A DNA stretch of 64,000 nt from Candidatus Abawacabacteria bacterium (GTDB taxonomy: Bacteria; Patescibacteriota; Gracilibacteria; RBG-16-42-10): positions 1,964-65,963 of the forward strand of contig JACQZO010000007.1 of the NCBI GenBank assembly GCA_016207805.1, read 5' to 3'. Numbering within the stretch: the stretch's first letter is position 1; each line of letters opens with the position of its first letter. Positions 14,980 to 62,341 of this stretch are shown here, piece after piece. The notes beneath the pieces were generated by a model. That model did no database searches and had not been told where the DNA came from. It worked only from the letters and a program-made list of their open reading frames with translations. Position numbers and translations under genes: made by a program.

Positions 14980-15053
14980 GCGGGTATAGTATAGCGGTAT
15001 TATGACTGCCTTCCAAGCAGTAGAGATGGGTTCAATTCCCATTACCCGCTCCA
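14980..15053 (+). tRNA. tRNA-Gly (anticodon UCC), CCA encoded
   Basis: Hand-folded cloverleaf. Acceptor GCGGGTA/TACCCGC, anticodon stem ACTGC/GCAGT with loop CTTCCAA, T-arm ATGGG-TTCAATT-CCCAT, discriminator T, then CCA. Confidence 0.9.
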
Positions 15054-15188
15054 CGAGGTCACTTGTGACCGAGTCTGGATCCTTGATCCTGTTTCCGGAA
15101 GATGTAGTCTACAAAAAGACTTTCTGACCTCAAGGAAATAGGAGCCAGGAAAGAGGAATAGTAGATCTCAACAAGAGTCTCACATTAT

Positions 15189-27235: not shown

Positions 27236-28282
27236 TTAGCGAAAACTATAAGTTCTGGCAAAATCAGCCGGGACATCACTGGTGAAAGCTATTGGCAATC
27301 CATGACTAGTAACTGCTGATACTGATAATCTGATATGTGGTAATTGCCTGTCGCGCATGATCGCTTCGGCCAATGTTGGCGGGATAACAAAAGTGTGGAT
27401 TTCTTGGGGAGCTAATTGTCTACATAATGAAGTACTACTACAGGCACCATAAGAACCTGACCCTGTAGTATTTGCACATATTTCATTTGATGAGCAACTG
27501 GTGCCAAAGTATAAACAATTGGGCTGGGCAGCATGAAGTGAGTTGTAAGCTCGCTGAGTATCCAGTGAAAAGTCGTCAGTATTAAAAGTAAGACATATAA
27601 TACGTGGATTAAGACCATTATGAATCGATACACCAATACGGGGTATTTCATGACGAGCAATGAAATCAGTATGAGGAGAAAACGAGGGGCGATAAATATG
27701 GTCTCTGCCAGGGATCAGTACCCAAGACATCCCTGAGACTGAATTCACCTCATTACTAACCGTATAGTGTATGGCGTGACGGCTATCAGTATCACTAATT
27801 AGTTTGTTGGTTTTACCAATATTAATAAACCCAGTCCAGCGTAATCTTTGGTCGCCATCCCGTGGTAAAGGTTCAACGATTCTTTCATTGGCCATTGAAC
27901 TCCATGCATCTTCGCCACTACTACCATCAGTTGTTATTATTTGGTTACGCCCAGGAGTACGATCACTAGTAAATATCAGCCTTTGCTCTTTCATCATACA
28001 ATTACCAGAAAAATATACGCGCAAAGGTACGTGAGTGCCTGGATAGGTATATACAAATGAGTTTGGTGGTACATGAGCTGATGCTCGAGGATTTCCTAAT
28101 TCCACAGCAGCTATTCGGCAATTAGTCCGATCTATATCAGGACTAGTATCCTCAGCGGCATCTGAGATTATTTCCGCATCATTTGTACTAGAGCTGGCCG
28201 AGCCAGAGCAACCTAACATAAAACTCGCTAGTAAGAGTTCACGGATAGAAAATGATGAAGAATGGTCTGGATTCTTTAGCAT
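27236..28282 (-). CDS. putative lipoprotein, unknown function
   Basis: Lipobox SFMLGC, acidic linker, Cys-rich C-terminal part. ATG at 28280-28282 preferred over the upstream TTG. Confidence 0.5.
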   Translation of the reverse strand: MLKNPDHSSSFSIRELLLASFMLGCSGSASSSTNDAEIISDAAEDTSPDIDRTNCRIAAVELGNPRASAHVPPNSFVYTYPGTHVPLRVYFSGNCMMKEQRLIFTSDRTPGRNQIITTDGSSGEDAWSSMANERIVEPLPRDGDQRLRWTGFINIGKTNKLISDTDSRHAIHYTVSNEVNSVSGMSWVLIPGRDHIYRPSFSPHTDFIARHEIPRIGVSIHNGLNPRIICLTFNTDDFSLDTQRAYNSLHAAQPNCLYFGTSCSSNEICANTTGSGSYGACSSTSLCRQLAPQEIHTFVIPPTLAEAIMRDRQLPHIRLSVSAVTSHGLPIAFTSDVPADFARTYSFR

Positions 28283-28321
28283 ATACTTAATGGAGCTTAC
28301 AAATGTAGAGAACAATATTTC

Positions 28322-44826: not shown

Positions 44827-46240
44827 AGCATTTATGCCCTTCATTGTCTAAATAGACACTGCCCTTAACCGCTTGTGTACTACTATTTTCCACTGTACTC
44901 CAGAGTATTGTGGAAGGTAAACGCAGAGCATTCAACTCTTCTACCGGCGAGGACGTCATGAAGCAATCCTGGGTAACACTAGTTAAACGTAATGGCGAGG
45001 CAATACTAATATCAAGTCCATCTAATTGATCAGCAATATATACTTTGAGCAATGGTTTGCTAGTATCACGACTCTTGATAGTTAGGACATCTGTCTCATG
45101 TTCTTTTTTCCATTCAGTAAGCAAAGTAGTATTTTTCACATATTCAGCCCCTCTAGTACCATCAGGCAAAACAAAATTAACAGTTTTGGGAAAAAGGATA
45201 GCAGCATACTGAGCAATATTCTGAGTAAAGTGTTCTTTCCAATCAGATCTTTCCTCCGGAGAAATGGTCAGTGTGAGTCGAGATTGCTCCAAAGTTCCTC
45301 CCCAATGGAAAATATATGGATAGTCACCAATACTTTTTGCTATTTCTCCCCATGCTTTACCAGTGGGAGCATTACCCCACAAGGTCTCGACTGTTTGCCA
45401 TAAACCAAAGTTCTGACTTTCACCTTCAAGCATCTTTAGCTTGCTCGCTAGACCTTCACCAGCAAATGCAGCCCAGTCACCGCCAGCTAAAATGGCTTTC
45501 CGATAATCTCTTTTGCTGCTAATAGGATGATGAAATTGATCAGTAAAAAATAGTTGATATTCAGCATGGAATGGTTTGGTTGGGTACAGTGTTAGTACTA
45601 AGTAGCGTACCGTACCTTGCAAATAAGCTGGTAATAAATCAAATTTATACTTTTCACCAATTCCTTGGCCCCACCAATTAAGACATTCAAGTGAGCAAAA
45701 AGATATGCCCCAACGTCGACTCCAGGAGGATACACCCGCTTCTTTGAGCCAAGGCATTTCTTGTACAGTATTAAGCTTGGCGACAGTAACAGTAGGATGT
45801 GGGGAAATCACAGCGATAGTATCGAACCATTTGAGTTGATAGGAAGTGTCTGATACTACCACCTGCTCTGATCCACCACTTAAATCTTGCCAAGTATTTA
45901 GTAGAGCCTCTTTATCTGGTCTATAGAGATAGAGCTCAGCCACAATTTTATCAGTCTTTTTTCTTAGCACCAAAGCATTTGTCTCACCCCAGAAAGGACA
46001 ATTTAGTAATGCGCAGTCCAACTTGCTTTTCAACGCCTTTAGGCTTGACGGTAGCGGGAAGCTGGTATCAGCTTGGCCCTCCCATTCAAAATAGCCGACA
46101 ATATCTTGATTGCTAATCTTATTAGCTAATACTAATGGTCGATAAAGATGATATAAAAATGCTGCAATACTAAGACACAACACAATAGCCACTAATATTG
46201 CTAGTATCCATCCTAACTGTTTATTCCACAGTTTAGCCAT
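44825..46240 (-). CDS. membrane-anchored hypothetical protein
   Basis: N-terminal TM helix LGWILAILVAIVLCLSIAAFLY, then about 440 aa without a recognisable motif. Confidence 0.5.
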   Translation of the reverse strand: MAKLWNKQLGWILAILVAIVLCLSIAAFLYHLYRPLVLANKISNQDIVGYFEWEGQADTSFPLPSSLKALKSKLDCALLNCPFWGETNALVLRKKTDKIVAELYLYRPDKEALLNTWQDLSGGSEQVVVSDTSYQLKWFDTIAVISPHPTVTVAKLNTVQEMPWLKEAGVSSWSRRWGISFCSLECLNWWGQGIGEKYKFDLLPAYLQGTVRYLVLTLYPTKPFHAEYQLFFTDQFHHPISSKRDYRKAILAGGDWAAFAGEGLASKLKMLEGESQNFGLWQTVETLWGNAPTGKAWGEIAKSIGDYPYIFHWGGTLEQSRLTLTISPEERSDWKEHFTQNIAQYAAILFPKTVNFVLPDGTRGAEYVKNTTLLTEWKKEHETDVLTIKSRDTSKPLLKVYIADQLDGLDISIASPLRLTSVTQDCFMTSSPVEELNALRLPSTILWSTVENSSTQAVKGSVYLDNEGHKC

Positions 46241-48389
46241 TAGTACCAAAGCGTTTCAAATATTCTTTGTGAGAAAGGCTGACACGATTCTTTACTGGAT
46301 CAACATCTAACACAACAACTTTGAGCATATCTCCAACCTTGCATACCTCACTAATAGTATTGATACGACGATCAGCTAGTTCAGAAATGTGTACCATACC
46401 ATCTCTTCCTGGGACTTTTTCTACTAAAACCCCCACCTCTTTTCCTGACATTCTATCTTGAATAATCTTTGTTACTTTTCCTTCAAACACATCACCGATT
46501 TCAAATTTGAAAGTAAGACGCTTAATCCATTCTACTGCCTTAGCCATATTTTCTTCATTATTAGAAGAAACCAGCACTGTACCATCATCCTCAATGTCAA
46601 TTTCAACACCAGTAGAATCAATAATTTCATTGATAATTTTGCCTCCGCTACCAATCACATCCCGAATCTGATCAGGATGAATCTTTAAAGTAATCACCCG
46701 TGGTGCAAAGCGAGACATTTCTGGTCGTACGGTAGGTAATACCTCAAGCATTTTGCCTAAGATAAAAAGTCTACCCACTTTAGCTTGAGCAATAGCATCA
46801 CGCATAATATCAATAGTAATACCTTTTACTTTGATATCCATTTGCAAAGCAGTAATACCCGTAGCGCTACCAGCTACCTTAAAATCCATATCACCACCAA
46901 AATCTTCCAGATCACGAATATCAGTAAGTACCTTGTAAGTACCATCTGGCTCGGTCATCAGTCCCATCGCGACACCAGCTATGGGAGCGGCGATAGGCAC
47001 TCCTGCATCCATAAGAGATAAGGTGCTACCACAAACTGCTGCCATTGAAGTAGAACCATTACTACCCAATATCTCAGTTACTACGCGAATAGCATAAGGG
47101 AAATCAGCAAGTGCCGGAAGCACTGGAACTAAAGCCTTTTCCGCTAAATAACCATGACCAATTTCTCGTCTACCAGGCCCACGTGAAGGTCTCACATCGC
47201 CAACAGAATAAGAAGGGAAATTATAATGATGCATGTAATGCTTCGTATAGTCCATATCCATATCATCTATCATTTGTCCGTTTCCTTTGGAGCCAATAGT
47301 AGCAATGGTCAATCCCTGAGTTTCACCTCGGTTGAACAACGCTGATCCATGAGTGCGAGGCAAAAGAGAAACTCGAGCTGAAATAGGCCGAATATCAGTT
47401 AATCCTCTACCATCAGGGCGCTTGTTGTTTACCAGAATATTTTTGCGCAAATGTTTTTTGAGCACTCCTTCCACCACCTCGCTAATAAACTTGGCACTAA
47501 ATGTATCGTCAAGCGCTAAAACTTGATCCGTTATTTTTTTCTTGAGTACACGTGCAGCTGCATCAATTTCTTTGCTTAATGGATGAGCAAAAATAGCATT
47601 AGCATCTTCATCAGATACCATTTCTTTGACAACATCATAGAGTTTTTTCTGGCACTTTTCACCCAACTGTTCTTCAGGGATTCTCAGGGTGTAAGTGATT
47701 GGTGTAACATTGCACTGGGCAAGCAATTCATTTTGTAAGGCAACAGTTTTTTTGAGTTCACTATGAGCGAAATCTAATGCCTTTACCATGGTTTCTTCAT
47801 CGACCTGTTTAGCACCAGCTTCCACCATCATAATGGCGTCAGCGGTACCGGCTACTACCAAATCCAAGCTACTTGCTTCAATCTGTTCATAAGTAGGATT
47901 AGTAATAAAATTGCCATCGATAAGACCGATTCGCACACCGCCAACTGGACCACTGAATGGTAAACCAGCCAATGACATAGCACATGAAGCACCAATCAAA
48001 GCAATAATAGCGGGATCATTTTCGCCATCAGCAGAAAGTACGGTACAAATTACTTGAGTGTCATTAACAAATCCCTTAGGGAAAAGTGGCCTTATCGGTC
48101 TATCAATAAGACGAGCAGCCAAAACTGCTGCATCCGATGGTCTACCCTCACGCTTCATGAATCTACTACCTTTGATTTTCCCCGCAGCATAAAAACGTTC
48201 TTCGTAATCAACTAGCAAAGGAAAGAAATCAATATCCGGCTTCGCTTCTGGCATTACAGTAGCTGCAGCAAGGATTACTACATCGCCATAGCGAACAAGC
48301 ACCGAACCATTAGCTAGTTTTGCCATTTCCCCTGTTTCCAGTTGAAGAGTGCGACCAGCAAATTCAGTAGATACGATACGTGAAGACAT
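46233..48389 (-). CDS. pnp: polyribonucleotide nucleotidyltransferase (PNPase)
   Basis: Two RNase PH domains, KH (IRDVIGSGGKIINEI) and S1 (GDVFEGKVTKI). Classical rpsO-pnp synteny. Confidence 0.95.
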   Translation of the reverse strand: MSSRIVSTEFAGRTLQLETGEMAKLANGSVLVRYGDVVILAAATVMPEAKPDIDFFPLLVDYEERFYAAGKIKGSRFMKREGRPSDAAVLAARLIDRPIRPLFPKGFVNDTQVICTVLSADGENDPAIIALIGASCAMSLAGLPFSGPVGGVRIGLIDGNFITNPTYEQIEASSLDLVVAGTADAIMMVEAGAKQVDEETMVKALDFAHSELKKTVALQNELLAQCNVTPITYTLRIPEEQLGEKCQKKLYDVVKEMVSDEDANAIFAHPLSKEIDAAARVLKKKITDQVLALDDTFSAKFISEVVEGVLKKHLRKNILVNNKRPDGRGLTDIRPISARVSLLPRTHGSALFNRGETQGLTIATIGSKGNGQMIDDMDMDYTKHYMHHYNFPSYSVGDVRPSRGPGRREIGHGYLAEKALVPVLPALADFPYAIRVVTEILGSNGSTSMAAVCGSTLSLMDAGVPIAAPIAGVAMGLMTEPDGTYKVLTDIRDLEDFGGDMDFKVAGSATGITALQMDIKVKGITIDIMRDAIAQAKVGRLFILGKMLEVLPTVRPEMSRFAPRVITLKIHPDQIRDVIGSGGKIINEIIDSTGVEIDIEDDGTVLVSSNNEENMAKAVEWIKRLTFKFEIGDVFEGKVTKIIQDRMSGKEVGVLVEKVPGRDGMVHISELADRRINTISEVCKVGDMLKVVVLDVDPVKNRVSLSHKEYLKRFGTNG

Positions 48390-48398
48390 GTGAAATAA

Positions 48399-48662
48399 TT
48401 ATTTACGAAGCCCAACTTCTTGAGTGAAAGCCTCATAGCCAGTGGGATCGATAGTTTTAAAATAAGCCATGAGTTTGCGACGCTTACCTACCAACATTAG
48501 CAGGCCACGGCGTGAGTGATTGTCTTTTTTGTGCTTTTCCAAATGCTTCGTCAAGTCATCGATACGTTGGCTAACCAAGGCAATTTGCACCTTGATTGAT
48601 CCCGTATCTTTGGCATGCGCAGCAAACTTAGAAATCACTGTTTTCTTTTTTGCTCGGTCCAT
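48399..48662 (-). CDS. rpsO: 30S ribosomal protein S15
   Basis: DTGS..VQIALVSQRI..LT.HL..HKKD.HSRRGLL.LVGKRRKL..Y. Confidence 0.95.
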   Translation of the reverse strand: MDRAKKKTVISKFAAHAKDTGSIKVQIALVSQRIDDLTKHLEKHKKDNHSRRGLLMLVGKRRKLMAYFKTIDPTGYEAFTQEVGLRK

Positions 48663-48830: not shown

Positions 48831-51008
48831 TTATCTAGCTCTTCGCACTCTTGGCACAATATGGAAATGTTGTGGTGGCCCATGATAACGAACAAAGAGC
48901 ATGCCTTGGCGAGCAAGTCGCACACTGGCCTGAATCAGGGCTTGAAAATAGCTTTCTGAATCAATACTGCTAATCGCACGTTGATAGCTACCATTTCGCA
49001 TACGACGCATCACTACATATTGTCTTCTGCTCATATCGATAGCAGCTCCAGTCAAATGTGCACTGCGCGGGCTATGACCACGCAATCGATTATTGGCAGC
49101 TCTACTTCTTACTGTACTATTGATCATTGGTATGACGAAAAGCTCTGGGTTCATGCCACCAGTTCTCAAGATAGCATTAAGTTCTTCAGTCAGTTTTTCG
49201 ACAACCGGCACATGATCAGCACGAATCACCCGACGCCATTGCTCAGTGATATTGGCTGGATCGAAAGCAAGTAAAGGACGTCGATGTGGATCAGCGGCTA
49301 CAAAAGTATGATCATGCACCATTCCCTGTACCGTAGACTCTAATACTGCATCATTAGCCACACCACCAGCTAATCTTCTCGCCAGAGCATCATTCCTCAT
49401 GAGCCAGGCATGGACCCGAATATTTCCCTGACTGACATTCCTAGTAGCAAAATTCCAAGCATCACGATTAAAAGGAACTCTAGCGCCCAAGGCCGGCGCA
49501 TTTTCTACTCTCACAAATCGCTGAGTTTTTATATCTTCTAATCGAGCATGTGCCCAACGATTAAATGCCTCACCTAGCATTTCACCATTGTGTGAAGTTT
49601 CGGTAGGAGACACAGAAGGACTAGCTCCAACATCACTTGGTTCCGTATCATTATCACCTTCAAATAAAGCATCCCAAGTATATATCAGTAGAGGGTATGG
49701 GACTGATGCTCGACCAAAAAAGCCATCAGTACGATTGAGAAAGTATTGTGTACTGGCTCTGATATAGCCCTGATTCAAAATAGCTTCTCGATCTTCGCCC
49801 CTAAGCAAATCTTGCATATCACTATCAGCAAGTCGGCGATCGAGCATATTGGAAATTCGTGTCGGTCCACTATGATAAGCTCCAATGAGAGCAGGAACAA
49901 GAAATGCTTCGGGATAGCGCCACACTGGGTGATTCGGTTCAGCCCATTTGCTTCTAAAATGGCGGAAAATATTATCAAACTCTAATGCTGCTACGCGAGC
50001 TGATTGCCAAGGTGTTTGAGCAACCGAAGCAAAACTGACTCGCATAGGTCGACCGTTGCTACCACGAAACGCTCGGTTCCAAGCAGAATTGCGACGAGCA
50101 TCGGCATAGGAAGACCTTTGTGTTTGCATTATACCCACAGCACCTGTTCTACTGATAGTAATATTGGCTCCGAAAGATGTTTCTTGAGCGGGAATACCAT
50201 TAGTTACTAAACGGGCAAACTGGCTAGCAAGATCTGGTGATCTAGCTTCCAAAAATCTATATAATTCTGTTTCGTGAAACGCAATCATAAAGTTTCGGCG
50301 CAGATGTTCTCTCATCGAAAGGCGAGATCCTGGTCTAATTGGTCTTTCTGCATAATTAGAAACAGCAGCGAAAGTACTATCAGTGTCTATAGGGAAACCA
50401 AATGGCAATTCTCGCGCAGTATCAATAGTTGTACAAGTATGGTGATTGAGACGCTCTCTAGCCGAGTCCCACCAATCTTGATTTCGCTGTCTTCCCGCTC
50501 TAGCTATCACTCCTGGCAAAATAGCTGTTCCACAAAGCTGCCACCCTGTCGGTAAAGGATTGATAAAAGTGACGATAGCATTGTCACTCCTCGGCCTGGC
50601 GCGTAAGGCAGTAGCTAAAGATCTAACCGATTGTCCCATGCCTTCAGTAGGAGAAAAGTCCCCCAAATCAACACCTTCATCTGTGTCAGTTATCACTGGT
50701 CCTGATTCATGAACATCTTCATCTTCACTACCTGCATCGTCTTCAACACCAGCATCACTTTCACAACCACCATCTTCATTGCAGTCATGCTCTTCTTCAT
50801 TGCTATTGGTAGCAGCATCACCGGCACTTGCTACTGGAGGAGCAGGATTATGATGATTGTTATTGTCTGAAGATCTAGAACTACAGGCTAAAAATGGTAG
50901 TAAGCCAGCAAATAGCAAAGCTAAGCGAGTTCGCTTCGTTGGCGAAATAAACTTTCTAACTTCAACTGATCTAGTAGATTCTGTATGTCTTGGTAGGCGA
51001 TGTGACAT
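48831..51008 (-). CDS. lipoprotein with lytic-transglycosylase (SLT)-like and M15-like zinc peptidase motifs (putative bifunctional peptidoglycan hydrolase)
   Basis: Lipobox LPFLAC (Cys42) and an acidic linker. SLT triad: AQETSF (E276), GIMQ (50124-50135), AYHSG (aa 377-381). C-terminal ...NNRLRGHSPRSAHLTGAAIDMS... (49035-49064) plus HFH resembles the SxHxxGxAxD...H of M15/YcbK-type peptidases. Confidence 0.6.
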   Translation of the reverse strand: MSHRLPRHTESTRSVEVRKFISPTKRTRLALLFAGLLPFLACSSRSSDNNNHHNPAPPVASAGDAATNSNEEEHDCNEDGGCESDAGVEDDAGSEDEDVHESGPVITDTDEGVDLGDFSPTEGMGQSVRSLATALRARPRSDNAIVTFINPLPTGWQLCGTAILPGVIARAGRQRNQDWWDSARERLNHHTCTTIDTARELPFGFPIDTDSTFAAVSNYAERPIRPGSRLSMREHLRRNFMIAFHETELYRFLEARSPDLASQFARLVTNGIPAQETSFGANITISRTGAVGIMQTQRSSYADARRNSAWNRAFRGSNGRPMRVSFASVAQTPWQSARVAALEFDNIFRHFRSKWAEPNHPVWRYPEAFLVPALIGAYHSGPTRISNMLDRRLADSDMQDLLRGEDREAILNQGYIRASTQYFLNRTDGFFGRASVPYPLLIYTWDALFEGDNDTEPSDVGASPSVSPTETSHNGEMLGEAFNRWAHARLEDIKTQRFVRVENAPALGARVPFNRDAWNFATRNVSQGNIRVHAWLMRNDALARRLAGGVANDAVLESTVQGMVHDHTFVAADPHRRPLLAFDPANITEQWRRVIRADHVPVVEKLTEELNAILRTGGMNPELFVIPMINSTVRSRAANNRLRGHSPRSAHLTGAAIDMSRRQYVVMRRMRNGSYQRAISSIDSESYFQALIQASVRLARQGMLFVRYHGPPQHFHIVPRVRRAR

Positions 51009-51010
51009 AA

Positions 51011-54000
51011 TTAGCCAAGGTTCATTTTTCTTATATAAGCTTCCATCTGTTGATCAAAGTTTTCCATCGTAGCCCTGAATAATTCATTAAAAGATGGCGC
51101 TACCGTAGTATTATCATCACCAAATATATCTGCTAGCACACGAAACTGTGATTGATTTCCTAACATAATCGCAGATACCATATGATCCTCCATACCCCAA
51201 GGACTTCTGGCGTCAGTAAGCATTCTTCTTATTCGAGGACCATTGCCACTACTATCACCACCATCACCCATAAAGTAAAAGGCAGAAGCATATTCTGGAT
51301 ATTGTTCTTTTTGGGCATTGAGATCCTCTGCCACCTGACCAATTGCTGGGAGCATTTCAGTTCCTCCGTTAGTGTAAACATGTTGCATGAGACGAGCTTT
51401 GATAGTTGACTGAGCCCCATTACCGAAATCATAGCGTTCTCGTGAATCATAGTCCTGCTCAAACCCTTTAATTCTTCTCATATAGTCAGCAAACACATCA
51501 ATAGAAAAGCGCACATAACCATATTCTTTCTTAATACGTGATAAAAGTTCACAGAGAGCAATTAGCACCTTTAACACTGCCTTGAGTTTACTAGGTTCTA
51601 TTATACGATATTGTTCATCATGAACCGGTCCATCCATAGAATCACTCACATCCACTAAAAATGCAGCTAAGAACATTGGCTCAGTAGAGCTAGTCCATTC
51701 ACGGGGGCGAAATACCTTACCAGTTTGTATCGCAATTGGACGGCCCATGGCTTTTTTATCCAATTTTCCTCTACGAGCCCCAGCATAATCTGCAATTCGA
51801 GCATCAACTCTTTTTGGCAGGCGCTCCACAAAGTACTCATACCATTGATCCACCACGTCAGCGACCTCTTCTTTGATTAATTCATATTGGTCATGAAGTA
51901 CCGCATCACGTTCAATTTCCAGTGCCAATCGATCTAACGCTTGAGGATTGTCCTTTTTTAGTTCCGCTTCCATTCTCTTTTTCTCTGCTTCATCAATAAA
52001 TCCATCCTCTTCGAGCTTGTCTAACTTTTCTTGCAATTCTTGTTTCTTTTGCTCTTCGACAGCGTCAATAATTTCTTCAATTTCCTTTTTCATATCATCA
52101 AGTAGCTCTTCCTTGTCAAGATTTTCACGTAACTTTTCCAAATCCTTAAAAGACTTATCAGTCCCATCTTCAGAAACTTTTTGCTTCATCTTTTGTTTGG
52201 CTTCCTCCATTTGATCCAATTTCTTTTTAGCATTATCAAGCTCTTTCTGGGCATCATCGACATCTCTATCATCAACCTTTTGAGCTTCTTCCCTGGCTCT
52301 TTGCTCGGCTCTGTCTTTAAGTTGCTCGACAATATCTTCCATACTTTCTGGCTTTTCACCAGGTTGATCACTTTTCTCTCCCTCACCATCTCCTGAGTCC
52401 TGACCTGGTTCCCCAGGTGTCTGATCGCCACTTTCATCCCCAGGATCTCCTGATTCATCACCCGAATCAGCACTGCCACTTTTATCACCTTCCATACCCC
52501 CATCATCAGCTTTTTCACCGCCGTCATTTTTCTCTTTCTGCTTGCCTTGCTGTTTATCTTTTTTGTCCTTTTTCTTCTTCTCAGCAGGATCAGGTGGAGG
52601 TGTGGGATCTATACGTACCCAACGATTACCATTCCAGATTACGACCCAGGCGTGACCAGTAGTATTATCGATACTGGCCTTACCTTTTTTAGAAGAATCT
52701 ATATGGTCTCCTACTACTAAACGAGCAGGCACACCAAGATTGCGTAATAAAGCAATGGCTAAATGGGCAGTAGAATAACATTCCAGATGTTTCGCTGCAT
52801 CCAGGTTCTGAACATAATTACTAGCATTTGAAGTAGAGCGAATCTGATGCTGCACTCTTTGGGCCGCTTGGAGATCACCACCACCTGGATACACATGATT
52901 GCTGCGTAAATACTTCTGTACTTTTAAAGCAATAGCTTCAGCACCAGCTCCACTACCACGCACTGAAGCAAGTAAAGCTTCAGTAGCAGCGGAAAGGGCT
53001 CCGGTATAGAGAGACTCTGTATCTTGAGCTATTGGTGGGCTTTCAAAGGGATTATCTTCTTTAACAAACTCTACTGATATTTCAACTGGAGATGATGACT
53101 GGGCATAAAAACAGCCATTCTGATCACGCAGCAGATCCACTTTCACACCACCGCTTACTGTCAGCTTGCTAGCATCCAATTCATAACCATCAGGAATAGG
53201 AATAGCGGTAATGCCAGTGGTCACATAACCGGTGATAGCAAAGCGATGATCTCCAGGCACACTTCTCGTGTAAGGACCTAATACTTTTTTCTTACTCCAG
53301 GTCAAAGTATTCTTATCAAAATAACTTTTGTGGCCTCGGCAATAATAGCCCAATAAAGGCTTTTGACTAGTACCACGAGCTTCAATGACAAAAAATGGCC
53401 TGCTTTTCATCGTATCATTACCTTCATCGGGGCCTCCACCTGAAGGTGATGGTGGTGGAGTATGATATTCATCAGCATCCTCAGGAGGAATAGCAGGGTC
53501 TCCTTCACCGCCCGGAGGTGGCATTGGCACACCGCCAGGTTGATCAGGATTAATGACCTGAGTTTTTTCGGGATCATCAATAGGATTGGGCTCATCAGGC
53601 TTATCTTTCACTATCTCAACAATACAATCACGCAGCCTTTCAAATGCTTTTCTATCTCGTGTTTGAGAGAACTTCTCGTAATGCGGGAAGAGGTAATCAA
53701 AAAGATCTTTTTCTCCCGTATCAAGCAAGCTCTGTAAACGTACATACTCAGGATCAGAAACAACTCCTTGGGTATTTAGCCATTTCAATTGTAAAAGATC
53801 CAAAACTTTACCAAAGCCGCTATTTGTCTTTAACCCAGCCACCAACTTTTGTCCTTGTAATGACATCGCTTGCTGGAGCTGATCACGCCCAGTAGCACCT
53901 AGATTCTCCATGCCTTCATGCACCACAGCACAAAACGTCAAATCATCGTACACAGTGTTCAAAGTGGGAACATCTACTTCTTTATCAAAGAATGCGGCAT

Positions 54001-54349
54001 AAAAGTGCGCTCGGCGACTATAATCATCATTGGTAGCTCGCGTAGAAGACATGCGAACTCTGGCAATGATAGGATCAACACCATAGGCTTTTACATCATC
54101 TGCTTTATAGATTAGCGCCTTGGGACGCAAAGCATCTTGCACACTTTTATCACTTGGTTCAGTTTTACCCTCCAAGAGCTTTTGTGCTACTGCTGCTGCC
54201 GGTGTGGTGCCATACCAATGTCCCCAATCTTTTCCTGGCAATACCCGAATTTCTGATGCATGACTAATAGCTTCTGCTTCATGAATGCGTTCACGCAAAT
54301 GGGCATCTACTTTAGGTCTATGACTAGGAGCAGCTGATGGTTTTTTCAT
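51011..54349 (-). CDS. large cytoplasmic protein: transglutaminase-like core + acidic/Lys-rich coiled-coil linker + C-terminal vWA (MIDAS) domain
   Basis: TGase Cys-His-Asp: ECYSTAHLAIALLRNLGVPARLV (Cys524, 52778-52780), GHAWVV (His566), RIDPT (Asp581). Linker is aa ~586-800. vWA: FLVDVSDSMDG (51638-51652), NGGTEM, MGDGGD. No signal peptide. Confidence 0.7.
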   Translation of the reverse strand: MKKPSAAPSHRPKVDAHLRERIHEAEAISHASEIRVLPGKDWGHWYGTTPAAAVAQKLLEGKTEPSDKSVQDALRPKALIYKADDVKAYGVDPIIARVRMSSTRATNDDYSRRAHFYAAFFDKEVDVPTLNTVYDDLTFCAVVHEGMENLGATGRDQLQQAMSLQGQKLVAGLKTNSGFGKVLDLLQLKWLNTQGVVSDPEYVRLQSLLDTGEKDLFDYLFPHYEKFSQTRDRKAFERLRDCIVEIVKDKPDEPNPIDDPEKTQVINPDQPGGVPMPPPGGEGDPAIPPEDADEYHTPPPSPSGGGPDEGNDTMKSRPFFVIEARGTSQKPLLGYYCRGHKSYFDKNTLTWSKKKVLGPYTRSVPGDHRFAITGYVTTGITAIPIPDGYELDASKLTVSGGVKVDLLRDQNGCFYAQSSSPVEISVEFVKEDNPFESPPIAQDTESLYTGALSAATEALLASVRGSGAGAEAIALKVQKYLRSNHVYPGGGDLQAAQRVQHQIRSTSNASNYVQNLDAAKHLECYSTAHLAIALLRNLGVPARLVVGDHIDSSKKGKASIDNTTGHAWVVIWNGNRWVRIDPTPPPDPAEKKKKDKKDKQQGKQKEKNDGGEKADDGGMEGDKSGSADSGDESGDPGDESGDQTPGEPGQDSGDGEGEKSDQPGEKPESMEDIVEQLKDRAEQRAREEAQKVDDRDVDDAQKELDNAKKKLDQMEEAKQKMKQKVSEDGTDKSFKDLEKLRENLDKEELLDDMKKEIEEIIDAVEEQKKQELQEKLDKLEEDGFIDEAEKKRMEAELKKDNPQALDRLALEIERDAVLHDQYELIKEEVADVVDQWYEYFVERLPKRVDARIADYAGARRGKLDKKAMGRPIAIQTGKVFRPREWTSSTEPMFLAAFLVDVSDSMDGPVHDEQYRIIEPSKLKAVLKVLIALCELLSRIKKEYGYVRFSIDVFADYMRRIKGFEQDYDSRERYDFGNGAQSTIKARLMQHVYTNGGTEMLPAIGQVAEDLNAQKEQYPEYASAFYFMGDGGDSSGNGPRIRRMLTDARSPWGMEDHMVSAIMLGNQSQFRVLADIFGDDNTTVAPSFNELFRATMENFDQQMEAYIRKMNLG

Positions 54350-54361
54350 TGGCTAGTCTTA

Positions 54362-57300
54362 TTATGGCTTACGAACTGATGTCCAAGAATTCATACCAGC
54401 CTTTATCTTTTGCACATCATCCTCATCATCAAAATGAGCCAAAAATACTTCTTCCAATAATTGTTTTGCCAATTTATCAGCATTCAGGTAGTTGAGTGCA
54501 TTTTTGTCAGTCTTTTGTTTGTCAGGTACTTGCCCAAGCAAATAGGCACAGCGCCGCATTTCACGGCCAGTTACTGGTAAATTAACGGGAAGGCCTTTAC
54601 TACCAGGTTTTCCTTTCCCTAAACTTTTCACAAATTCTTTACGCAACTTGTCGGTAAATTGAGTTAAAGCCAAAATCACTTCCAAATCAAACTGCTGTAC
54701 AGGAGTAAGTGGAGTTAAGGTCTGCTGGGGTGTCGCCTTATTTACATATTTATGCCAATGAGCCACAAATTTGTTACGCTTAGGATCAGACTCAATAGAC
54801 ATATCTTTCAAGGAAGGGACAGATCTAGCTACACGCCAAGCCTCCGAAACAGTATAGTCACCTGCAGCATTTTGTAATGGCGGATAAGCTACTTTAATTT
54901 CAGTCATACGACTCTGAGTAGCCATTTGGATATCAAAAGTACCTGGGTAACCGATATTGGCTGATCCCGTAAATACTACTCCTGCTGCAGCTTTGATCAC
55001 TTTTCCACCTGCTGCATTTGAAGTCATAGAGCGCTTATGATCAAAAAGAGCATGCATAAAAAGCTGACCATGCTCAGGCATACCATTGAATTCATTAAGA
55101 TTGATTATCGCACCAGGTGTTTGCATACCCTGGACAATAATTGAAGGTACCCTAATTGTCTGACTAGCTCCTCCTTCTACTTGGAGCTGAATATCTTCAC
55201 AAAGAGCAAATTCATCTGTCCACTTAGTACAGTTGAAAGAAAATAATGGGCGGCCGGTTAAATGAGCAAAAATTTCTATGAGAACATCTTTACCAGTACC
55301 GGCATGTCCTTTAAGTAAAGTAAAGTCATGTCCCAATGCTAATTGCATTTTGAAAAAACGTGCCATTTGAGCCAAATATTCTTCGGCTGTTTCATCCAAT
55401 ACCCAGCCGTCTTGCCATTTGGGCACTCTATTTTCAGCTATTTCTGCATTTCCGATACTAGCAGGGGCGCTGCTTTTTTCTAAGCGCTCTAATTGGCGAA
55501 GTTGAATCACATGATGCTCAGCACAATATTTGCCATAGGCCTCCACAGCAGCTGTACAGCTCGCACGCCATTGATCATAGGCAGCAATCTCTGCTGCATC
55601 CGTAATTGCCGGTCGAAGCACACTACCATCTTCGGCGGTAATTGCATTCTTAGTAACGGAAAGACTTTTAGCAACTCCCCAGCGCTTCTTACCAACAGCA
55701 TATTTGGTGTGAATTTCATCTCTTAGCCTTTTTGCTTCAGCCTTCACAGCGTCCCAATTACCAGCATCTCTCTTGAATGCAGCAAATTCTTTTACTGTCA
55801 TATAAGTAGCAGGTACTTCTTGACCACGATATTGACTGATACCAGCATACTGTTCTACTTCAGATGACATACTCCATAAGGGTATTCTCCTCTTACTAGC
55901 TCCGACAGTCATTTCAAGTTCAGGCTCACCCTTGAAGTCCTGAGCTGACTTTCCATTTCCTCGTGAGCTCTCATCCATTTTGAATACCAAATCAAATTGC
56001 GGTCTCACTTGAGTTACTTTGGCTACTACAGGAACTTGATAATAAGGAAATGAATCGTTGCCCAGACGCACCTCACGAGCACCATTAGTGCCAGTTTGCA
56101 ACTTTGCCGTTCTTTCAATTTCACCAGCGAGTTGAGCCACTTGCGCCTGTAAATGAGCCTCAAGTTCATCTGCGCCGTGAATATCATGGCCACGAACAGC
56201 AGCAATGGTTAAGGTCAATGCATGTCCCTCCGGTCCTTGCATAAATACTTCCAAGGCAGCTCTGTCACTAAATTGTCGACGTTTAGCCTGAGCAATTAAG
56301 TCATCAATATCTACTCGAACCATACTGCGAGCCTGATGTTTCTTTTCTTCTGCCAATCGCATAGCTTCTGCCTTTTTGGCATCCATAGCAAATTGGCAAT
56401 CTCTTACTGCATTGTTTACTATCAATAAAGCATTAGCTATTGCTCCTCGTGCTTGAGCTGCACCAGAAGGACAAGCAGTTTCCAATTGGCGCAACCGAGC
56501 TCTCACGGCTGGCAACTTCAACTTTTTCCATGTGTCTAAATCACTTTCATTAATCATAGCATCCACTTCTTTGCGCACCTCATTAGCAATGGCATCAAGA
56601 TCAGGTTGTATTCTAGCGGCAGTATTATTGTACAATCCTACCAATTCACCTTCTACAGTAGCATAAGCATCGCTTACTTCTTGTGCTAAAACTGTATCAA
56701 CCTGGGATCTAAACTGCGCCAGTGCTTCTAATTCGTTCTTTAAAGCTAAGGCATTCACTAGGGTAAAGTTGCCAATTGCAGCGCGGGTCGTGACAACAGC
56801 AGCGGCCATTCTAGCTCGAGCAAACAGTAGTGTTTTTTGGTGAAGAGCAGCTTCAACATCGCTTGCTATATAGTCTGTTTCGAGAGCAGTTGATCCTGAC
56901 GCTACTATATCTTTTTTGGCTATTTGTAAAGCTGCAGTAAGTTCTTCGGCTCTTTCTAAAGTTGTGGCCGCCTGGACTTCAGGAATAAAGCGCGCTGTCA
57001 ACGCATCTTTACTAGGTTTTAATCGCACTTGTACCGCTTGAGACAATTGTGGAGCCCGTGGTGCTGCTACTGCGAGACCTGCAGCAGGCTGTGCACTGGT
57101 AGCTGCTGCCGGTATTGCTAATTGAGCGACTGCTCGTTTTACTTTTAACTCGGCAGATAGAGTGGCAAAATCTGGCTCCGCTGTCACCAAGTAGCCAGCC
57201 TTGTCGACAGCACGTAATTTGCCATTTTGATCTAAATGCACATGAGACAAACTTGGTATCACAGCAGCTTGTTCGCCGGTAGCGATCTCGATCACGATCA

Positions 57301-58426
57301 CATTATCACCGGCATTAAGAATAAAAAAAGTGCCGCTAGGATCCACTTGTAAATTTGAAACTGTGGCAAAATTGTTTTTCAGTGGATATTCAGTTTTCTG
57401 ATAAGTAGTCAAATCAACACCAATTACACTTCCAGGCCTGCTTGAAGTACAGTAAAAAAATCTTTTTTTGTCTCTCGATAGGCAAAAGTTGTTGCCAACG
57501 TTGGGCATATTGTCTGAAAACTTGGTCGTAAAATTTCCAGATGTCACATCTCTGATTGAAATCATGGGTGTTTCTACCAGCACACAATGATTATCATCAA
57601 TAGGTTTAAGCTCAGGTAGCGTCGCAAACTTCTGGACAACTTTTTCTGCATCTGGTAAGGCGGGATTAGCCAAAGCCCATGGTGCAAACTTACCCCAGTC
57701 GCGAGGTGGTAATGGAGCCCCATTAGCAGTCATTTGAAAGGCTATGCCAGCTTTATTGACACCACGCACTATCAGATATTGTTCTCCGTTAAAAGGCACT
57801 ACAGATGCATAGCCATCAACAATTTGCATTCCCAAGTTTTTGATGGCATCACGTTGAACTTTGTCTACATTCAGCCGTGTTTGCTTCGCTACCAGTTCTT
57901 CTATTTGGGCAACAAAAGCCGGTGGTAGATTATTTGCTTTATTAGCAAAACCAATTGCCAGCATGGTTGCAAATGAAAGTGATCGCCCACCGCGACTGAA
58001 TACCTGACCATATTTATCAGCGACTTGCCAATCAGTCATGGGACGATCAGTCTCCAGTAATTGACCAACTGAACTTTGAGATGAGCGTAACGCGTCAAAA
58101 TTTTGCACGGCTTCCTCTATCCGTATTTGACAAAGTGCCATCCGATCTTTGCTACCATCAGGAACACGTCCATTGCCATCAAAAAGACGCATACCGCTTC
58201 CCACTTGACCATAGGGAGTGACCACCTTTTCGACTACTGCCGAGTAATCCCCCACCATGGTTATTTCCCGAATATTTCCGACATTCGTTGCCACAGGTTC
58301 AGCTGATCGCAAGACATTACTCAATTTCAAGCCATCGGAAGCTGGGGCTACTACTGTAGGAGGGGTAACACTTGGTGCGCGAGGTGCATTTGGTTTTTCA
58401 AACCCCTGATCGCTGAAAACACCCAT
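54362..58426 (-). CDS. giant protein with C-terminal MoxR/AAA_5-like AAA+ module (non-canonical Walker motifs) and ~1000 aa of unassigned N-terminal sequence
   Basis: LLKGHAGTGKDVLIEIFAHLTGRPLFSFNC (Walker A at 55286-55309), GAIINLNEFNGMP (Walker B position, 55091-55108), VVFTGSANIGYPG...QSRMTEIKVAYP. This layout is typical of AAA_5. No signal peptide or TM helix. Confidence 0.65.
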   Translation of the reverse strand: MGVFSDQGFEKPNAPRAPSVTPPTVVAPASDGLKLSNVLRSAEPVATNVGNIREITMVGDYSAVVEKVVTPYGQVGSGMRLFDGNGRVPDGSKDRMALCQIRIEEAVQNFDALRSSQSSVGQLLETDRPMTDWQVADKYGQVFSRGGRSLSFATMLAIGFANKANNLPPAFVAQIEELVAKQTRLNVDKVQRDAIKNLGMQIVDGYASVVPFNGEQYLIVRGVNKAGIAFQMTANGAPLPPRDWGKFAPWALANPALPDAEKVVQKFATLPELKPIDDNHCVLVETPMISIRDVTSGNFTTKFSDNMPNVGNNFCLSRDKKRFFYCTSSRPGSVIGVDLTTYQKTEYPLKNNFATVSNLQVDPSGTFFILNAGDNVIVIEIATGEQAAVIPSLSHVHLDQNGKLRAVDKAGYLVTAEPDFATLSAELKVKRAVAQLAIPAAATSAQPAAGLAVAAPRAPQLSQAVQVRLKPSKDALTARFIPEVQAATTLERAEELTAALQIAKKDIVASGSTALETDYIASDVEAALHQKTLLFARARMAAAVVTTRAAIGNFTLVNALALKNELEALAQFRSQVDTVLAQEVSDAYATVEGELVGLYNNTAARIQPDLDAIANEVRKEVDAMINESDLDTWKKLKLPAVRARLRQLETACPSGAAQARGAIANALLIVNNAVRDCQFAMDAKKAEAMRLAEEKKHQARSMVRVDIDDLIAQAKRRQFSDRAALEVFMQGPEGHALTLTIAAVRGHDIHGADELEAHLQAQVAQLAGEIERTAKLQTGTNGAREVRLGNDSFPYYQVPVVAKVTQVRPQFDLVFKMDESSRGNGKSAQDFKGEPELEMTVGASKRRIPLWSMSSEVEQYAGISQYRGQEVPATYMTVKEFAAFKRDAGNWDAVKAEAKRLRDEIHTKYAVGKKRWGVAKSLSVTKNAITAEDGSVLRPAITDAAEIAAYDQWRASCTAAVEAYGKYCAEHHVIQLRQLERLEKSSAPASIGNAEIAENRVPKWQDGWVLDETAEEYLAQMARFFKMQLALGHDFTLLKGHAGTGKDVLIEIFAHLTGRPLFSFNCTKWTDEFALCEDIQLQVEGGASQTIRVPSIIVQGMQTPGAIINLNEFNGMPEHGQLFMHALFDHKRSMTSNAAGGKVIKAAAGVVFTGSANIGYPGTFDIQMATQSRMTEIKVAYPPLQNAAGDYTVSEAWRVARSVPSLKDMSIESDPKRNKFVAHWHKYVNKATPQQTLTPLTPVQQFDLEVILALTQFTDKLRKEFVKSLGKGKPGSKGLPVNLPVTGREMRRCAYLLGQVPDKQKTDKNALNYLNADKLAKQLLEEVFLAHFDDEDDVQKIKAGMNSWTSVRKP

Positions 58427-58450: not shown

Positions 58451-58479
58451 ATTATGACAGGATTATCAACAAATGACAA
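58451..58479 (-). promoter_or_regulatory. candidate sigma70-like promoter of the three-gene operon
   Basis: Minus strand: TTGTCA (58474-58479), a 17-nt spacer, then CATAAT (58451-58456), about 25 nt upstream of the ATG at 58426. The same TTGTCA-17-TAxxxT layout occurs upstream of tRNA-Val. Confidence 0.3.
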
Positions 58480-60865: not shown

Positions 60866-61604
60866 TATTGTGATAAACCTGCTCGGCCAAAAGTTCTGGT
60901 TCTATATTCCTTAGCTGTGCTAACTTTTGTAAGGTCGCTGGTAAAAAAGCAGGCTCACATCTTTTACCACGCATTGGCTCGGGTGCAAGAAAAGGAGCAT
61001 CAGTTTCAATGAGCAGAGCGTCGGCAGGAATCTTTTGGGCTATTATTTGCAGCTCAGTAGCTTTAGCGAAAGTGACAATACCACTTAAAGAGATAAAGCC
61101 TCCGAGAGCGATGATCCACTCAATATCTCTTTCTGTACCGGTAAAACAGTGCATAATAAATCGCAAACCAGTATATTCCGCAATTATTCTTTGCGCAGCT
61201 AAAAATGCATCTCTAACGTGAAAAACTACCGGCAAATTGTACTTCATAGCTAATTCAATCTGGGCCCGCATCACTTGCTCCTGGAGCTCTGGAGAATGAG
61301 GATTGCGAAAATAATCTAAACCAGTTTCGCCTATAGCTACTATTGAATGCTCATGCAACATAGTTTCTAACCAACCAGCAACAATTTCATTCCATTCCGA
61401 TACATGATGTGGATGAATACCGAGAGTGATAGAACAATGATTAAGTTGCGCAACTTGCTTGATCAATACTTGATTGGTGGCATGATCATTGCCTACCACT
61501 ATGATATGTTCAACTCCAGCGGCTAATGCTCGATCAATAACTGCTGATCGGTCTCCATCGAATTCGGCTAAATGAATATGGCAATGACTATCAATGAGCC
61601 TCAT
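60816..61604 (-). CDS. tatD: TatD family metal-dependent hydrolase
   Basis: MRLIDSHCHI, IGETGLDY, HVRDA, HCF.G, ETDAPFL. Confidence 0.9.
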   Translation of the reverse strand: MRLIDSHCHIHLAEFDGDRSAVIDRALAAGVEHIIVVGNDHATNQVLIKQVAQLNHCSITLGIHPHHVSEWNEIVAGWLETMLHEHSIVAIGETGLDYFRNPHSPELQEQVMRAQIELAMKYNLPVVFHVRDAFLAAQRIIAEYTGLRFIMHCFTGTERDIEWIIALGGFISLSGIVTFAKATELQIIAQKIPADALLIETDAPFLAPEPMRGKRCEPAFLPATLQKLAQLRNIEPELLAEQVYHNTKRAFGFGDNAKLSVE

Positions 61605-62341
61605 ACTAAGAAGCGATCAAAAATATTGCTATAAGCACGCAAATGTAAGACATTACTAATATAGTACTTCTTTTCATCCATAGGCTGTACCAAAATTTCA
61701 AATTCATAACGTCCTCGTTCTAGCAAAGTAAGTTCTAGCCGAACTTTATTCCCTTGAACCGTATAATGAAAAGAAAAGGGCTTCTCATACTTTTCTTGTA
61801 AGGCCATTTGGCTAAACGTCTCTAAAGTTGACGGCCAAAAGATTAAAGGACGATTGCACTTGTAATACTTTTTGCGAGTATTCAAGCGAAGAAATCTTCT
61901 GGCAAAGTTTTGGGTAAAATAAAATGTTTCATCTTTGGCCTTGATCACTCCTACACCAACACAATTAAAACTAGCAGTAAGAATATTCGCTCGGTGACCA
62001 GGACTTTTCATCAAAGCTTTCTCTGCTTCTTCGGTAACATCATCAAAACCCCGCATCTTGGCGAGATTCTCACCAAAAGCAACATCGGTAATTCCCGCTC
62101 CCCGAATTCGATCACCCGGATCGCGATTTTGGGGATCCACATGGGCAAAAAAGTCCTGTTCGGCCATTTGATTGGAATGAGCCCGGGCTACCAGTCTCAA
62201 GTCATTCTGCATTGCCAAAGACTTCAAGCCATGGAATTTACGGTCATCGTTAAGCAGTTTCCACATTAGCCATTCTTTGTTTTCTAAACTTTCCGGACGA
62301 AATAGATGATGAAACCAATAAAGCAGATGATCTTTAAGCAT
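61601..62341 (-). CDS. CAP (SCP/PR-1, YkwD-like) domain protein
   Basis: LN.DR...GL..L.....L...A..HS..M......F.H....GENLA...SPGHRANIL...FN.VGVGV. Confidence 0.7.
   Translation of the reverse strand: MLKDHLLYWFHHLFRPESLENKEWLMWKLLNDDRKFHGLKSLAMQNDLRLVARAHSNQMAEQDFFAHVDPQNRDPGDRIRGAGITDVAFGENLAKMRGFDDVTEEAEKALMKSPGHRANILTASFNCVGVGVIKAKDETFYFTQNFARRFLRLNTRKKYYKCNRPLIFWPSTLETFSQMALQEKYEKPFSFHYTVQGNKVRLELTLLERGRYEFEILVQPMDEKKYYISNVLHLRAYSNIFDRFLV

Follow-up and report, generated by a model that had tools for sequence, protein, structure and literature searches.

A linked AAA+ and transglutaminase-vWA gene pair of Patescibacteria as a candidate cytoplasmic remodelling machine

The genomes of Patescibacteria are very small, and the proteins specific to their lineages are for the most part uncharacterised. 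We analysed a stretch of 64,000 nucleotides (nt) from a Candidatus Abawacabacteria bacterium (contig JACQZO010000007.1), hereafter the window, which carries three large open reading frames (ORFs) in a row on its minus strand. The upstream one, g1 (54362..58426), encodes a soluble giant AAA+ protein of 1354 amino acids (aa). It is followed by g2 (51011..54349), which encodes a soluble protein of 1112 aa with a transglutaminase-like (TGL) domain and a vWA domain, and by g3 (48831..51008), whose 725-aa product has the features of an exported peptidoglycan hydrolase with SLT and LAS/M15-like domains. g1 and g2 are the upstream and downstream members of a conserved pair, and g3 is a neighbour that is not among their conserved partners. 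On balance, we read the pair as a cytoplasmic ATP-driven remodelling and processing machine, a variant of the MoxR-vWA-TGL system.

In this reading, the pair is a soluble, fused version of a MoxR-vWA-transglutaminase operon that is common yet unexplained, and the biochemistry of the whole class could become easier because neither member of the pair is a membrane protein. A module of 7.4 kb that stays intact from Microgenomates to Parcubacteria and Peregrinibacteria must matter where it is present. As defined here, it is a testable and apparently undescribed module of Patescibacteria with an unusual nucleotide site.

Linkage of g1 and g2 without g3

To define the conserved unit, 50 loci were fetched around g2 homologues, and their flanks (±10 kb) were checked for homologues of g3. 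In 47 of the 50 loci, the g2 homologue is directly preceded on its own strand by a g1 homologue of 1260-1356 aa; the three exceptions are contig ends. The gaps between the two genes are mostly 3-30 nt. A word-indexed homologue search with g1 returned only the query itself; the g1 homologues used throughout were taken from the DNA upstream of g2 homologues. g1 and g2 are strictly linked and co-evolve, their pairwise identities correlating with r = 0.94 (630 pairs).

No g3 homologue was found within ±10 kb of the pair in any of the 50 loci. Nor does another third gene recur, as the 153 proteins encoded by the two genes closest to the pair on either side fell into 144 clusters. The closest g3 homologues (64%, 63%, and 42% identity) occur in three other, unrelated contexts without g1 or g2. 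An earlier note on this DNA had described three large co-directional ORFs with gaps of 12 and 2 nt and flanking spacers of 158 and 168 nt, and had read this layout as one transcription unit, a three-gene system. Our ORF calls agree with that layout, with 12 nt between g1 and g2, 2 nt between g2 and g3, and all three genes on the minus strand. The three-gene system finds no support in the other loci, and the argument from spacing carries little weight in the window itself. Gaps between same-strand genes in the window have a median of 18.5 nt, and 36% of them are no longer than 2 nt, so the 2-nt junction between g2 and g3 is little evidence of coupling. Compared across genomes, g3 appears to be a chance neighbour in this genome, set between the pair and rpsO-pnp.

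Co-transcription of g1, g2, and g3 in this single genome is possible. A promoter-like site, TTGTCA-17-(TG)CATAAT (58451..58479, minus strand), lies in the 158-nt spacer upstream of g1; it is a consensus scan match, with 10 of 12 consensus positions and an extended -10 TG. A site scan of the g2-g3 junction found no terminator-like site, and an Rfam scan of the window returned tRNAs only, with no RNA element in the g1-g2-g3 locus.

The genes adjoining the pair differ between loci. They encode S21, FtsA, and FtsZ in L006 and S1 and GyrA in L007, and in the window rpsO-pnp and TsaE are found. Since the neighbourhoods are not conserved, they permit no guilt by association. A side observation concerns L008, where a 1433-aa ORF without a Pfam match (10826-15127, plus strand) stands directly downstream of a g2 homologue.

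We identified 106 full-length homologues of g2 (33-41% identity), all from Patescibacteria where named. They come from Magasanik-, Kerfeld-, Uhr-, Taylor-, Komeili-, Pacei-, Levy-, Davies-, Roizman-, and Peregrinibacteria/Peribacteria. As far as seen, the pair appears to be restricted to Patescibacteria (the Candidate Phyla Radiation). The probable small-genome symbiont of the earlier note has this distribution of homologues as its only basis. In the g2 tree, sequences of Microgenomates, Parcubacteria-type, and Peregrinibacteria-type broadly cluster by lineage, and the window copy is the most divergent. Some metagenome-assembled genomes (MAGs) bear other titles. Loci L009, L011, L017, L018, L021, L030, L040, L042, L048, L049, and L052 are titled Gammaproteobacteria, Methyloversatilis, Pseudomonadales, or Sulfotelmatobacter, and L016, L024, L027, and L050, from public MAGs titled Saccharibacteria, are equally distrusted. 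We did not trust the titles of these loci, as their g2 sequences nest among those of Parcubacteria-type (the GC content of L042 is 0.39). Such titles are probably placeholders or binning errors.

We then asked what base composition says about ancestry. The earlier note had regarded the three proteins as rich in Arg, Ala, and Gly, encoded by GC-richer codons, and had seen in this a hint of separate ancestry. The GC content of the three genes is indeed higher, 0.43-0.45 against 0.401 ± 0.027 for the other genes of the window (z 1.0-1.8). As for the residues, an excess of Arg is confined to g3 (z 2.95) and one of Ala to g1 (z 2.15). The additional GC is found at the first two codon positions. GC at the third codon position (GC3) is 0.285-0.312 in the three genes and 0.330 ± 0.05 in the others, and their synonymous codon usage (chi2/df 1.17-1.38) falls inside the range of the other large genes (0.91-1.66). 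Across 34 loci with host GC from 0.32 to 0.61, the GC content of the pair tracks that of its flanks (r = 0.90, difference -0.002 ± 0.029). Horizontal transfer of the three genes was therefore rejected, since GC3, synonymous codons, and the comparison of pair and flanks carry no foreign signal, and separate ancestry is not supported. The tetranucleotide correlation of the region is lower (0.90-0.91 vs 0.96-0.98); this value is confounded by amino-acid composition and by a reference that excludes the region, and we give it little weight as a foreign signal. For the pair, a history of long residence with loss fits these data, which its patchy occurrence keeps short of proof.

Domain content of the two proteins

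The AlphaFold2 model of g2 has a mean predicted local distance difference test (pLDDT) score of 83. It was built on 93 sequences, to which the g2 conservation values given here refer. The domain architecture is constant among them, and g2 is well conserved throughout, catalytic domain included (52-69%). All features described in the three proteins are encoded on the minus strand. g2 begins with an alpha/beta plus helical domain (aa 18-248; 53606..54298) modelled at pLDDT about 85-95, with 53% mean pairwise identity; sequence and profile searches found no match for it in Pfam or the Protein Data Bank (PDB). It is followed by a disordered proline-rich linker (aa 250-315). Within this linker lies a nearly invariant acidic/proline motif, PEDxDEYHTPPP (aa 279-300; 53450..53515), in which D284, D291, D293, E294, Y295, and T297 are invariant and P298 is conserved in at least 90% of the sequences. 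Although the surrounding region is predicted to be disordered (pLDDT 34-76), the mean pairwise identity of the motif (80%) exceeds that of every folded domain of g2. A docking function is probable for it, for example as a ligand of the metal ion-dependent adhesion site (MIDAS) described below or of the beta-propeller of g1.

The next part of g2 (aa 319-600; 52550..53395) comprises a beta-sandwich (aa 320-430) and a transglutaminase core (aa 454-600) in the AlphaFold2 model, and resembles TgpA. Pfam Transglut_core matches aa 494-582 with an E-value of 5e-13, above the cut-off. The best Foldseek match is the whole periplasmic domain of Pseudomonas aeruginosa TgpA (6g49, E 3.9e-9, 300 columns), which is also the sole match of the g2 profile against the PDB (E 2.8e-4); searches of the PDB with single sequences of g2 and g3 gave nothing useful. 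The catalytic triad is retained, with H566 and D581 invariant and C524 conserved in at least 90% of the sequences. Behind the TGL core, an acidic disordered linker (aa 601-668, with pLDDT below 50 at 622-666) leads into a long helical stalk (helices at aa 670-843, pLDDT about 88-95); linker and stalk together span aa 601-845 (51815..52549). The C-terminus of g2 (aa 846-1112; 51014..51814, pLDDT about 82-94) is a vWA domain with a complete MIDAS, whose residues D900-x-S902-x-S904, T997, and D1029 are all invariant. By Foldseek, this domain has more than 40 vWA matches at E < 1e-3, among them vWA/I-domains, the MIDAS domain of Rea1/MDN1, and BatB (E 4e-5 to 1e-3). Pfam VWA_2 scores 18 bits in the window protein, which is sub-threshold, and is above threshold in some homologues.

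In g1, sequence matches are confined to the last ~350 residues, which form one AAA_5 module. This single AAA+ module of the CbbQ/NorQ-like type, together with its lid, covers aa 1001-1354 (54365..55426). Pfam AAA_5 matches aa 1037-1174 with an E-value of 8.4e-10 and 39 bits (cut-off 22), and is present in 27 of 27 g1 homologues (best E 1.7e-17). Against the PDB, the g1 profile matches CbbQ (5c3c, E 8e-13; 6l1q) and NorQ (9qh4, E 1e-11), with E-values of 8e-13 to 2e-10 overall. The earlier note had recognised both this AAA_5-type module and, in g2, the Cys-His-Asp core and MIDAS-bearing vWA domain, and the profile, fold, and residue data agree with it on all of these.

The nucleotide site of g1 is unusual. 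Walker A reads G-H-A-G-T-G-K-D (aa 1040-1047; 55286..55309), with Asp in place of Ser/Thr, and aligns to GPTGCGKT of NorQ; Walker B reads I-I-N-L-N-E-F (aa 1107-1113; 55088..55108), with Asn-Glu in place of Asp-Glu. g1 thus matches neither the canonical Walker A GxxGxGK[ST] nor the canonical Walker B hhhhDE, with K1046 and E1112 kept. Across the 27 homologues, which are 25-88% identical, G1040, G1043, G1045, K1046, and D1047 are invariant, as are N1111 and E1112. Three further invariant residues (54551..54964), N1157, R1173, and R1288, would be sensor-1, the Arg finger, and sensor-2, respectively, judged by their positions relative to NorQ/CbbQ. In our reading, the GKD/NE combination does not reflect decay and is a conserved, reciprocal exchange of charge at the presumed Mg2+ site. 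The invariant pair of substitutions amounts to a natural experiment on Mg2+ coordination by a P-loop ATPase.

The N-terminal two thirds of g1 evolve much faster than the AAA+ core, with mean pairwise identities of 15-30% in the N-terminal parts rising to 64% in the core. Residues 91-206 are poorly conserved and modelled with low confidence. The AlphaFold2 model then shows a WD40-like beta-propeller (aa 207-416; 57179..57808, pLDDT about 60-88), for which Foldseek returned seven-bladed propellers (G-beta and the WD40 domain of ATG16L1, E about 1e-6) and sequence searches found no match in Pfam or the PDB. A long alpha-helical stalk follows (aa 463-774; 56105..57040, helices at pLDDT about 80-90), with merely weak apolipoprotein/spectrin-like matches by sequence. 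After the stalk comes a small conserved beta domain (aa 775-850; 55877..56104, strands at pLDDT 82-89; compact at aa 776-849 in the model) containing the ETGQQM...FP.WEAKVKEK...GPGV motif region; its mean pairwise identity of 41% is above that of the rest of the N-terminal part. Beyond it, further helices extend up to aa 993.

A proposed machine and its alternatives

Both proteins of the pair are soluble. No transmembrane (TM) segment or signal peptide was found in g1, g2, or their homologues, and no 19-residue hydropathy window exceeds 1.5. Averaged over 19 residues, Kyte-Doolittle hydropathy peaks at 1.36 in g2 and does not exceed 1.45 in its 93 homologues.

MoxR-class AAA+ ATPases work with vWA/MIDAS co-factors, as in CbbQ-CbbO, NorQ-NorD, RavA-ViaA, and midasin. 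By analogy, g1 would assemble into a ring through its single C-terminal CbbQ/NorQ-like AAA+ module, and g2 would use its C-terminal vWA/MIDAS domain and its stalk of helices to dock on this ring, in the manner of other couples of a MoxR-class ATPase and a vWA protein. A target might be caught by the fast-evolving N-terminal part of g1 with its WD40-like propeller, by the MIDAS site of g2, by the N-terminal domain of g2, or by a combination of these. The two long helical stalks would transmit ATP-driven movements that remodel the target, which the TgpA-like Cys-His-Asp domain of g2 would then cleave or transamidate.

Couples of this kind have been reviewed (PMC7159879), and the three-gene MoxR-vWA-YebA/TGL operon is very common in prokaryotes (PMC3495828). 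For the latter, a role in degradation close to the membrane has been predicted, with substrates recruited by vWA, unwound by MoxR, and cleaved by TGL (PMC3495828). In P. aeruginosa, tgpA is essential and shares a transcript with genes for a MoxR and a DUF58 protein, and TgpA shows transglutaminase activity in vitro (PMC3507681). Like this operon (YebA/TgpA; PA2875-PA2874-tgpA in P. aeruginosa), the pair links AAA+, vWA, and TGL modules with a Cys-His-Asp triad, and the beta-sandwich and TGL core of g2 are structurally closest to the periplasmic domain of TgpA (6g49, as above). The operon has three genes, whereas the pair has two, with vWA and TGL fused in one protein of about 1100 aa. g1 in addition carries a 1000-aa N-terminal extension of propeller and stalk and the GKD/NE Walker motifs, and the pair is, as far as seen, confined to Patescibacteria.

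Several points weigh against this reading. YebA and TgpA are multi-pass membrane proteins, whereas the pair is without TM segments. The ATPase of their operon is a MoxR proper (AAA_3) of about 320 aa, whereas g1, with 1354 aa, is of the AAA_5 CbbQ/NorQ type; AAA_5 is the sole ATPase family at threshold in g1. Throughout the family, Walker A has Asp for Ser/Thr and Walker B has Asn for Asp, so the ATPase competence of g1 is not certain. The N-terminal 1010 residues of g1 were modelled from a 24-sequence alignment with moderate confidence (mean pLDDT 69.5). The pair is also patchy, a search with two near-invariant peptide patterns finding 44 loci among 185,579 species genomes, and such a distribution is no less compatible with an accessory role, for instance in defence, than with housekeeping. 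Finally, the ring, the docking, the capture of a substrate, the peptidase or transamidase chemistry, and the biological role of the pair are all steps that we infer.

The pair clearly uses the same parts as its other named relatives, and it lacks some defining features of each. The solved proteins closest in sequence to the g1 AAA+ module belong to CbbQ-CbbO and NorQ-NorD, which serve Rubisco activation and nitric-oxide reductase maturation. The vWA partner of CbbQ or NorQ has a C-terminal vWA/MIDAS domain and is encoded beside the ATPase gene. CbbQ and NorQ are stand-alone AAA+ proteins of about 270 aa with canonical GKT/DE motifs, whereas g1 has 1354 aa and GKD/NE; CbbO and NorD are without a TGL domain, whereas g2 carries one; and none of the loci examined encodes the clients Rubisco or cNOR close to the pair. 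Midasin/Rea1, a eukaryotic ribosome-assembly remodeller, shares with the pair the AAA_5 family and a long helical and acidic linker to a client-gripping MIDAS vWA domain. It has six tandem AAA modules and the MIDAS in one polypeptide and no TGL domain, whereas g1 has one AAA_5 stretch per homologue and the MIDAS resides on g2. The Foldseek matches of the g2 vWA domain to MIDAS structures of Rea1/MDN1 (E 6e-5 to 8e-4) are no better than those to generic vWA domains. The MoxR-vWA 'ternary' conflict systems (VMAP, iSTAND, FtsH, and beta-propeller types; Kaur et al. 2020) share the core of a MoxR-class ATPase and a vWA protein, have beta-propellers in one class, and occasionally use TGL thiol peptidases as effector domains. 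Unlike them, the pair has neither a conserved third partner nor a variable repertoire of effectors, and it has no match in PADLOC. The propeller sits on the vWA protein in those systems and on the ATPase in the pair, and their hosts are multicellular or large-genome bacteria, whereas those of the pair are small-genome Patescibacteria.

These likenesses suggest other readings of the pair. It is conceivable, though we consider it improbable, that the pair is a compact biological-conflict system of the anti-phage or abortive-infection type, a binary version of the ternary systems, in which the variable N-terminus and propeller of g1 would sense an invader, the AAA+/vWA couple would set a threshold, and the TGL thiol peptidase would be the effector. 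The patchy distribution across Patescibacteria, the size of the module (about 7.4 kb) in such small genomes, and the divergence of the N-terminal two thirds of g1 (15-30% identity against 64% in the AAA+ module) all speak for this idea, as does the use of beta-propellers and, rarely, TGL peptidases in published MoxR-vWA conflict systems (PMC7159879). In Actinomycetota, moreover, a MoxR/vWA/propeller/transglutaminase cluster has been tied to threat sensing (PMC13622651). However, PADLOC models match none of g1, g2, and g3, and neither a conserved third component nor variable effector modules accompany the pair. Its neighbours are housekeeping genes that differ at every locus, with no defence or mobile-element genes adjoining. 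g2 is uniformly conserved, catalytic domain included, instead of diversifying, and its lineage-wise tree and host-tracking GC content argue for long residence over mobility. No copies occur in viral contigs, and a search of PHROGs returned nothing beyond a CobS-like AAA match and a single family whose function is unknown. Somewhat less probable again is an assembly or activation chaperone like CbbQ-CbbO, NorQ-NorD, or midasin, whose vWA/MIDAS domain would grip an acidic residue of a large cytoplasmic complex while the AAA+ ring remodels it, the TGL domain serving mainly as a peptide-binding or cross-linking (transglutaminase) module and not as a protease. It would suit the kinship of the g1 ATPase with CbbQ and NorQ, its closest solved relatives, the resemblance of the g2 vWA domain to Rea1/MDN1 MIDAS among other vWA domains, the in vitro transglutaminase activity of TgpA, which the TGL part resembles most in structure (PMC3507681), and the translation or cell-division genes that often adjoin the pair (L006, L007, and the window). 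Those neighbourhoods are not conserved, though, and the Rea1 match does not stand out from generic vWA matches. g1 has one AAA+ module where midasin has six, and the conserved Cys-His-Asp triad argues for catalysis, while it is silent on protease versus transamidase.

Two further readings are very unlikely. The earlier note had envisaged that the cytoplasmic ATPase and vWA/transglutaminase protein control or deliver the exported SLT/M15 hydrolase g3 as an effector that degrades cell walls. g3 is credible as an exported peptidoglycan hydrolase, and its start lies 2 nt past the g2 stop with no terminator-like site between them. Such junctions are common in the window, however. With no g3 homologue near the pair in 50 loci, no recurrent third gene, and the nearest g3 relatives in three unrelated contexts, the delivered effector is without comparative support. 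Moreover, the g3 family counts 19 members among 1.84 billion proteins, compared with over 100 homologues of g2, and g1 and g2 have no export signals that would couple them to an extracytoplasmic enzyme. On the comparative data, the three-component model appears largely refuted. Tight gene spacing in a compact genome is no evidence of functional coupling, and the effector-delivery model is corrected accordingly. Equally doubtful is that g1 is a catalytically dead pseudo-ATPase whose AAA+ fold is a nucleotide-independent scaffold for g2. The replacements in Walker A and Walker B would favour it, but both are invariant and reciprocal, which looks like alternative metal coordination instead of decay; the Walker A Lys, the Walker B Glu, and the sensor-1, Arg finger, and sensor-2 positions are all invariant, and no part of g1 is better conserved than the AAA+ module.

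What the earlier note had proposed for the first two genes, an expanded and fused MoxR-class AAA+/vWA couple with a transglutaminase-like domain, is borne out by profiles, folds, and linkage. Its remark that the architecture is not a recognised named system also holds, since no specific name for the pair exists in databases, where g1-family proteins are called 'AAA family ATPase', 'MoxR-like ATPase', or 'hypothetical' only. A literature search on Patescibacteria or the Candidate Phyla Radiation and transglutaminase found no description of the pair; its coverage was limited, and this is not a firm negative. More speculatively, the pair might be an undescribed, Patescibacteria-specific sensor-switch-effector machine with a charge-swapped site, whether a binary class of conflict system or a midasin-like remodeller. 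A propeller-bearing AAA+ ring would then drive its MIDAS/transglutaminase-like partner to destroy or cross-link a specific target on demand or, alternatively, the pair would remodel a large cytoplasmic assembly as a bacterial counterpart of midasin.

The probable exported hydrolase g3 and other genes of the window

g3 begins with a positively charged n-region, a hydrophobic segment, and Cys42 (aa 1-43; 50880..51008; hydropathy maximum at aa 29-47). The sequence reads ...LLPFLAC42S, in which Phe at -3 and Leu at -2 are off the rule [LVI][ASTVI][GAS]C, so this lipobox-like LPFLAC is near-canonical only; a Cys after a hydrophobic N-terminal segment recurs in many homologues. An acidic low-complexity linker separates the export signal from an SLT-like (GH23) domain (aa 260-400; 49809..50231) with E276 (AQETSFG), GAVGIMQ at 289-295, and AYHSGP at 377-382, and the SLT motifs E-S, GAxGxxQ, and AYNxG are conserved in the family alignment. 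Pfam SLT scores 18.9 bits in g3, below the cut-off of 21.3, and matches 13 of 19 relatives (best E 2.6e-17). The C-terminal domain (aa 585-725; 48834..49256) is LAS/M15-like, a type of zinc peptidase, with R634, S649-x-H651-x6-D658, and H714-x-H716; R634, S649, H651, D658, H714, and H716 are invariant in 19 sequences. Peptidase_M15_3 likewise stays below its cut-off in g3 (19.7 against 23.2 bits) and is found in 7 of the 19 relatives (best E 2.2e-7), with DUF5715 in 8 of them (best E 4.5e-11). The SLT and M15-like motifs noticed earlier in g3 are therefore conserved, with Pfam support at the level of the family, and the lipobox claimed with them holds for the presence of the Cys and not for the canonical pattern.

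The family is tiny. An exhaustive HMMER search found 19 relatives among 1.84 billion representative proteins, and an indexed search found two close homologues. g3 shares with bifunctional lytic transglycosylase/LAS-type peptidases the ES, GxxQ, and AYNxG motifs, H-x6-D...H-x-H, SxH plus Arg, and an export signal with Cys. It differs from them in falling below the Pfam thresholds for both domains, in its small family, and in the lysine content of its closest members (0.7-1.1%). g3 itself has 0.7% Lys and 11.2% Arg; its four closest relatives are likewise very poor in lysine, and its more distant relatives have 6-10% Lys. The lysine contents of g1 and g2 are ordinary, and the contrast with lysine-poor g3 fits an extracytoplasmic g3 and a cytoplasmic g1 and g2. 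By its motifs and family, g3 appears to be an independently inherited, exported bifunctional peptidoglycan hydrolase, combining a lytic transglycosylase with a LAS/M15-type peptidase. It is likely to remodel the cell's own wall or that of a host, independently of the g1-g2 pair.

Other proteins of the window are also lysine-depleted (0.7-1.7% Lys, often Arg-rich). Besides 48831-51008 (minus strand), which is g3, they are encoded at 12361-14208, 16128-16826, and 16886-17341 on the plus strand and at 27236-28315 on the minus strand. Among them are two with SLH (S-layer homology) domains as well as the exported g3, and cytoplasmic housekeeping proteins contain about 6% Lys. Lysine thus seems to be avoided, genome-wide, in proteins exposed at the surface. 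In L053, a 2219-aa ORF without a Pfam match (3718-10377, plus strand) lies directly downstream of a g3 homologue.

On the other side of the locus, the 158-nt spacer 5' of g1 leads to an Rce1-like gene. The 168-nt spacer 3' of g3 is accounted for by the ORF of rpsO (ribosomal protein S15, 87 aa; 48399..48662), to which it runs; with pnp (PNPase), rpsO forms a gene pair (46233-48662, minus strand) directly downstream of g3. Further upstream of g1, a CAP (cysteine-rich secretory protein/SCP) domain protein is encoded between the genes for TatD and RF1 (61601-62341, minus strand). A VirD4/TraG/TrwB-like coupling ATPase of 803 aa (20065-22476, minus strand) has the most deviant synonymous codon usage of the large genes (chi2/df 1.66) and may be part of a conjugation- or competence-type apparatus or of a mobile segment.

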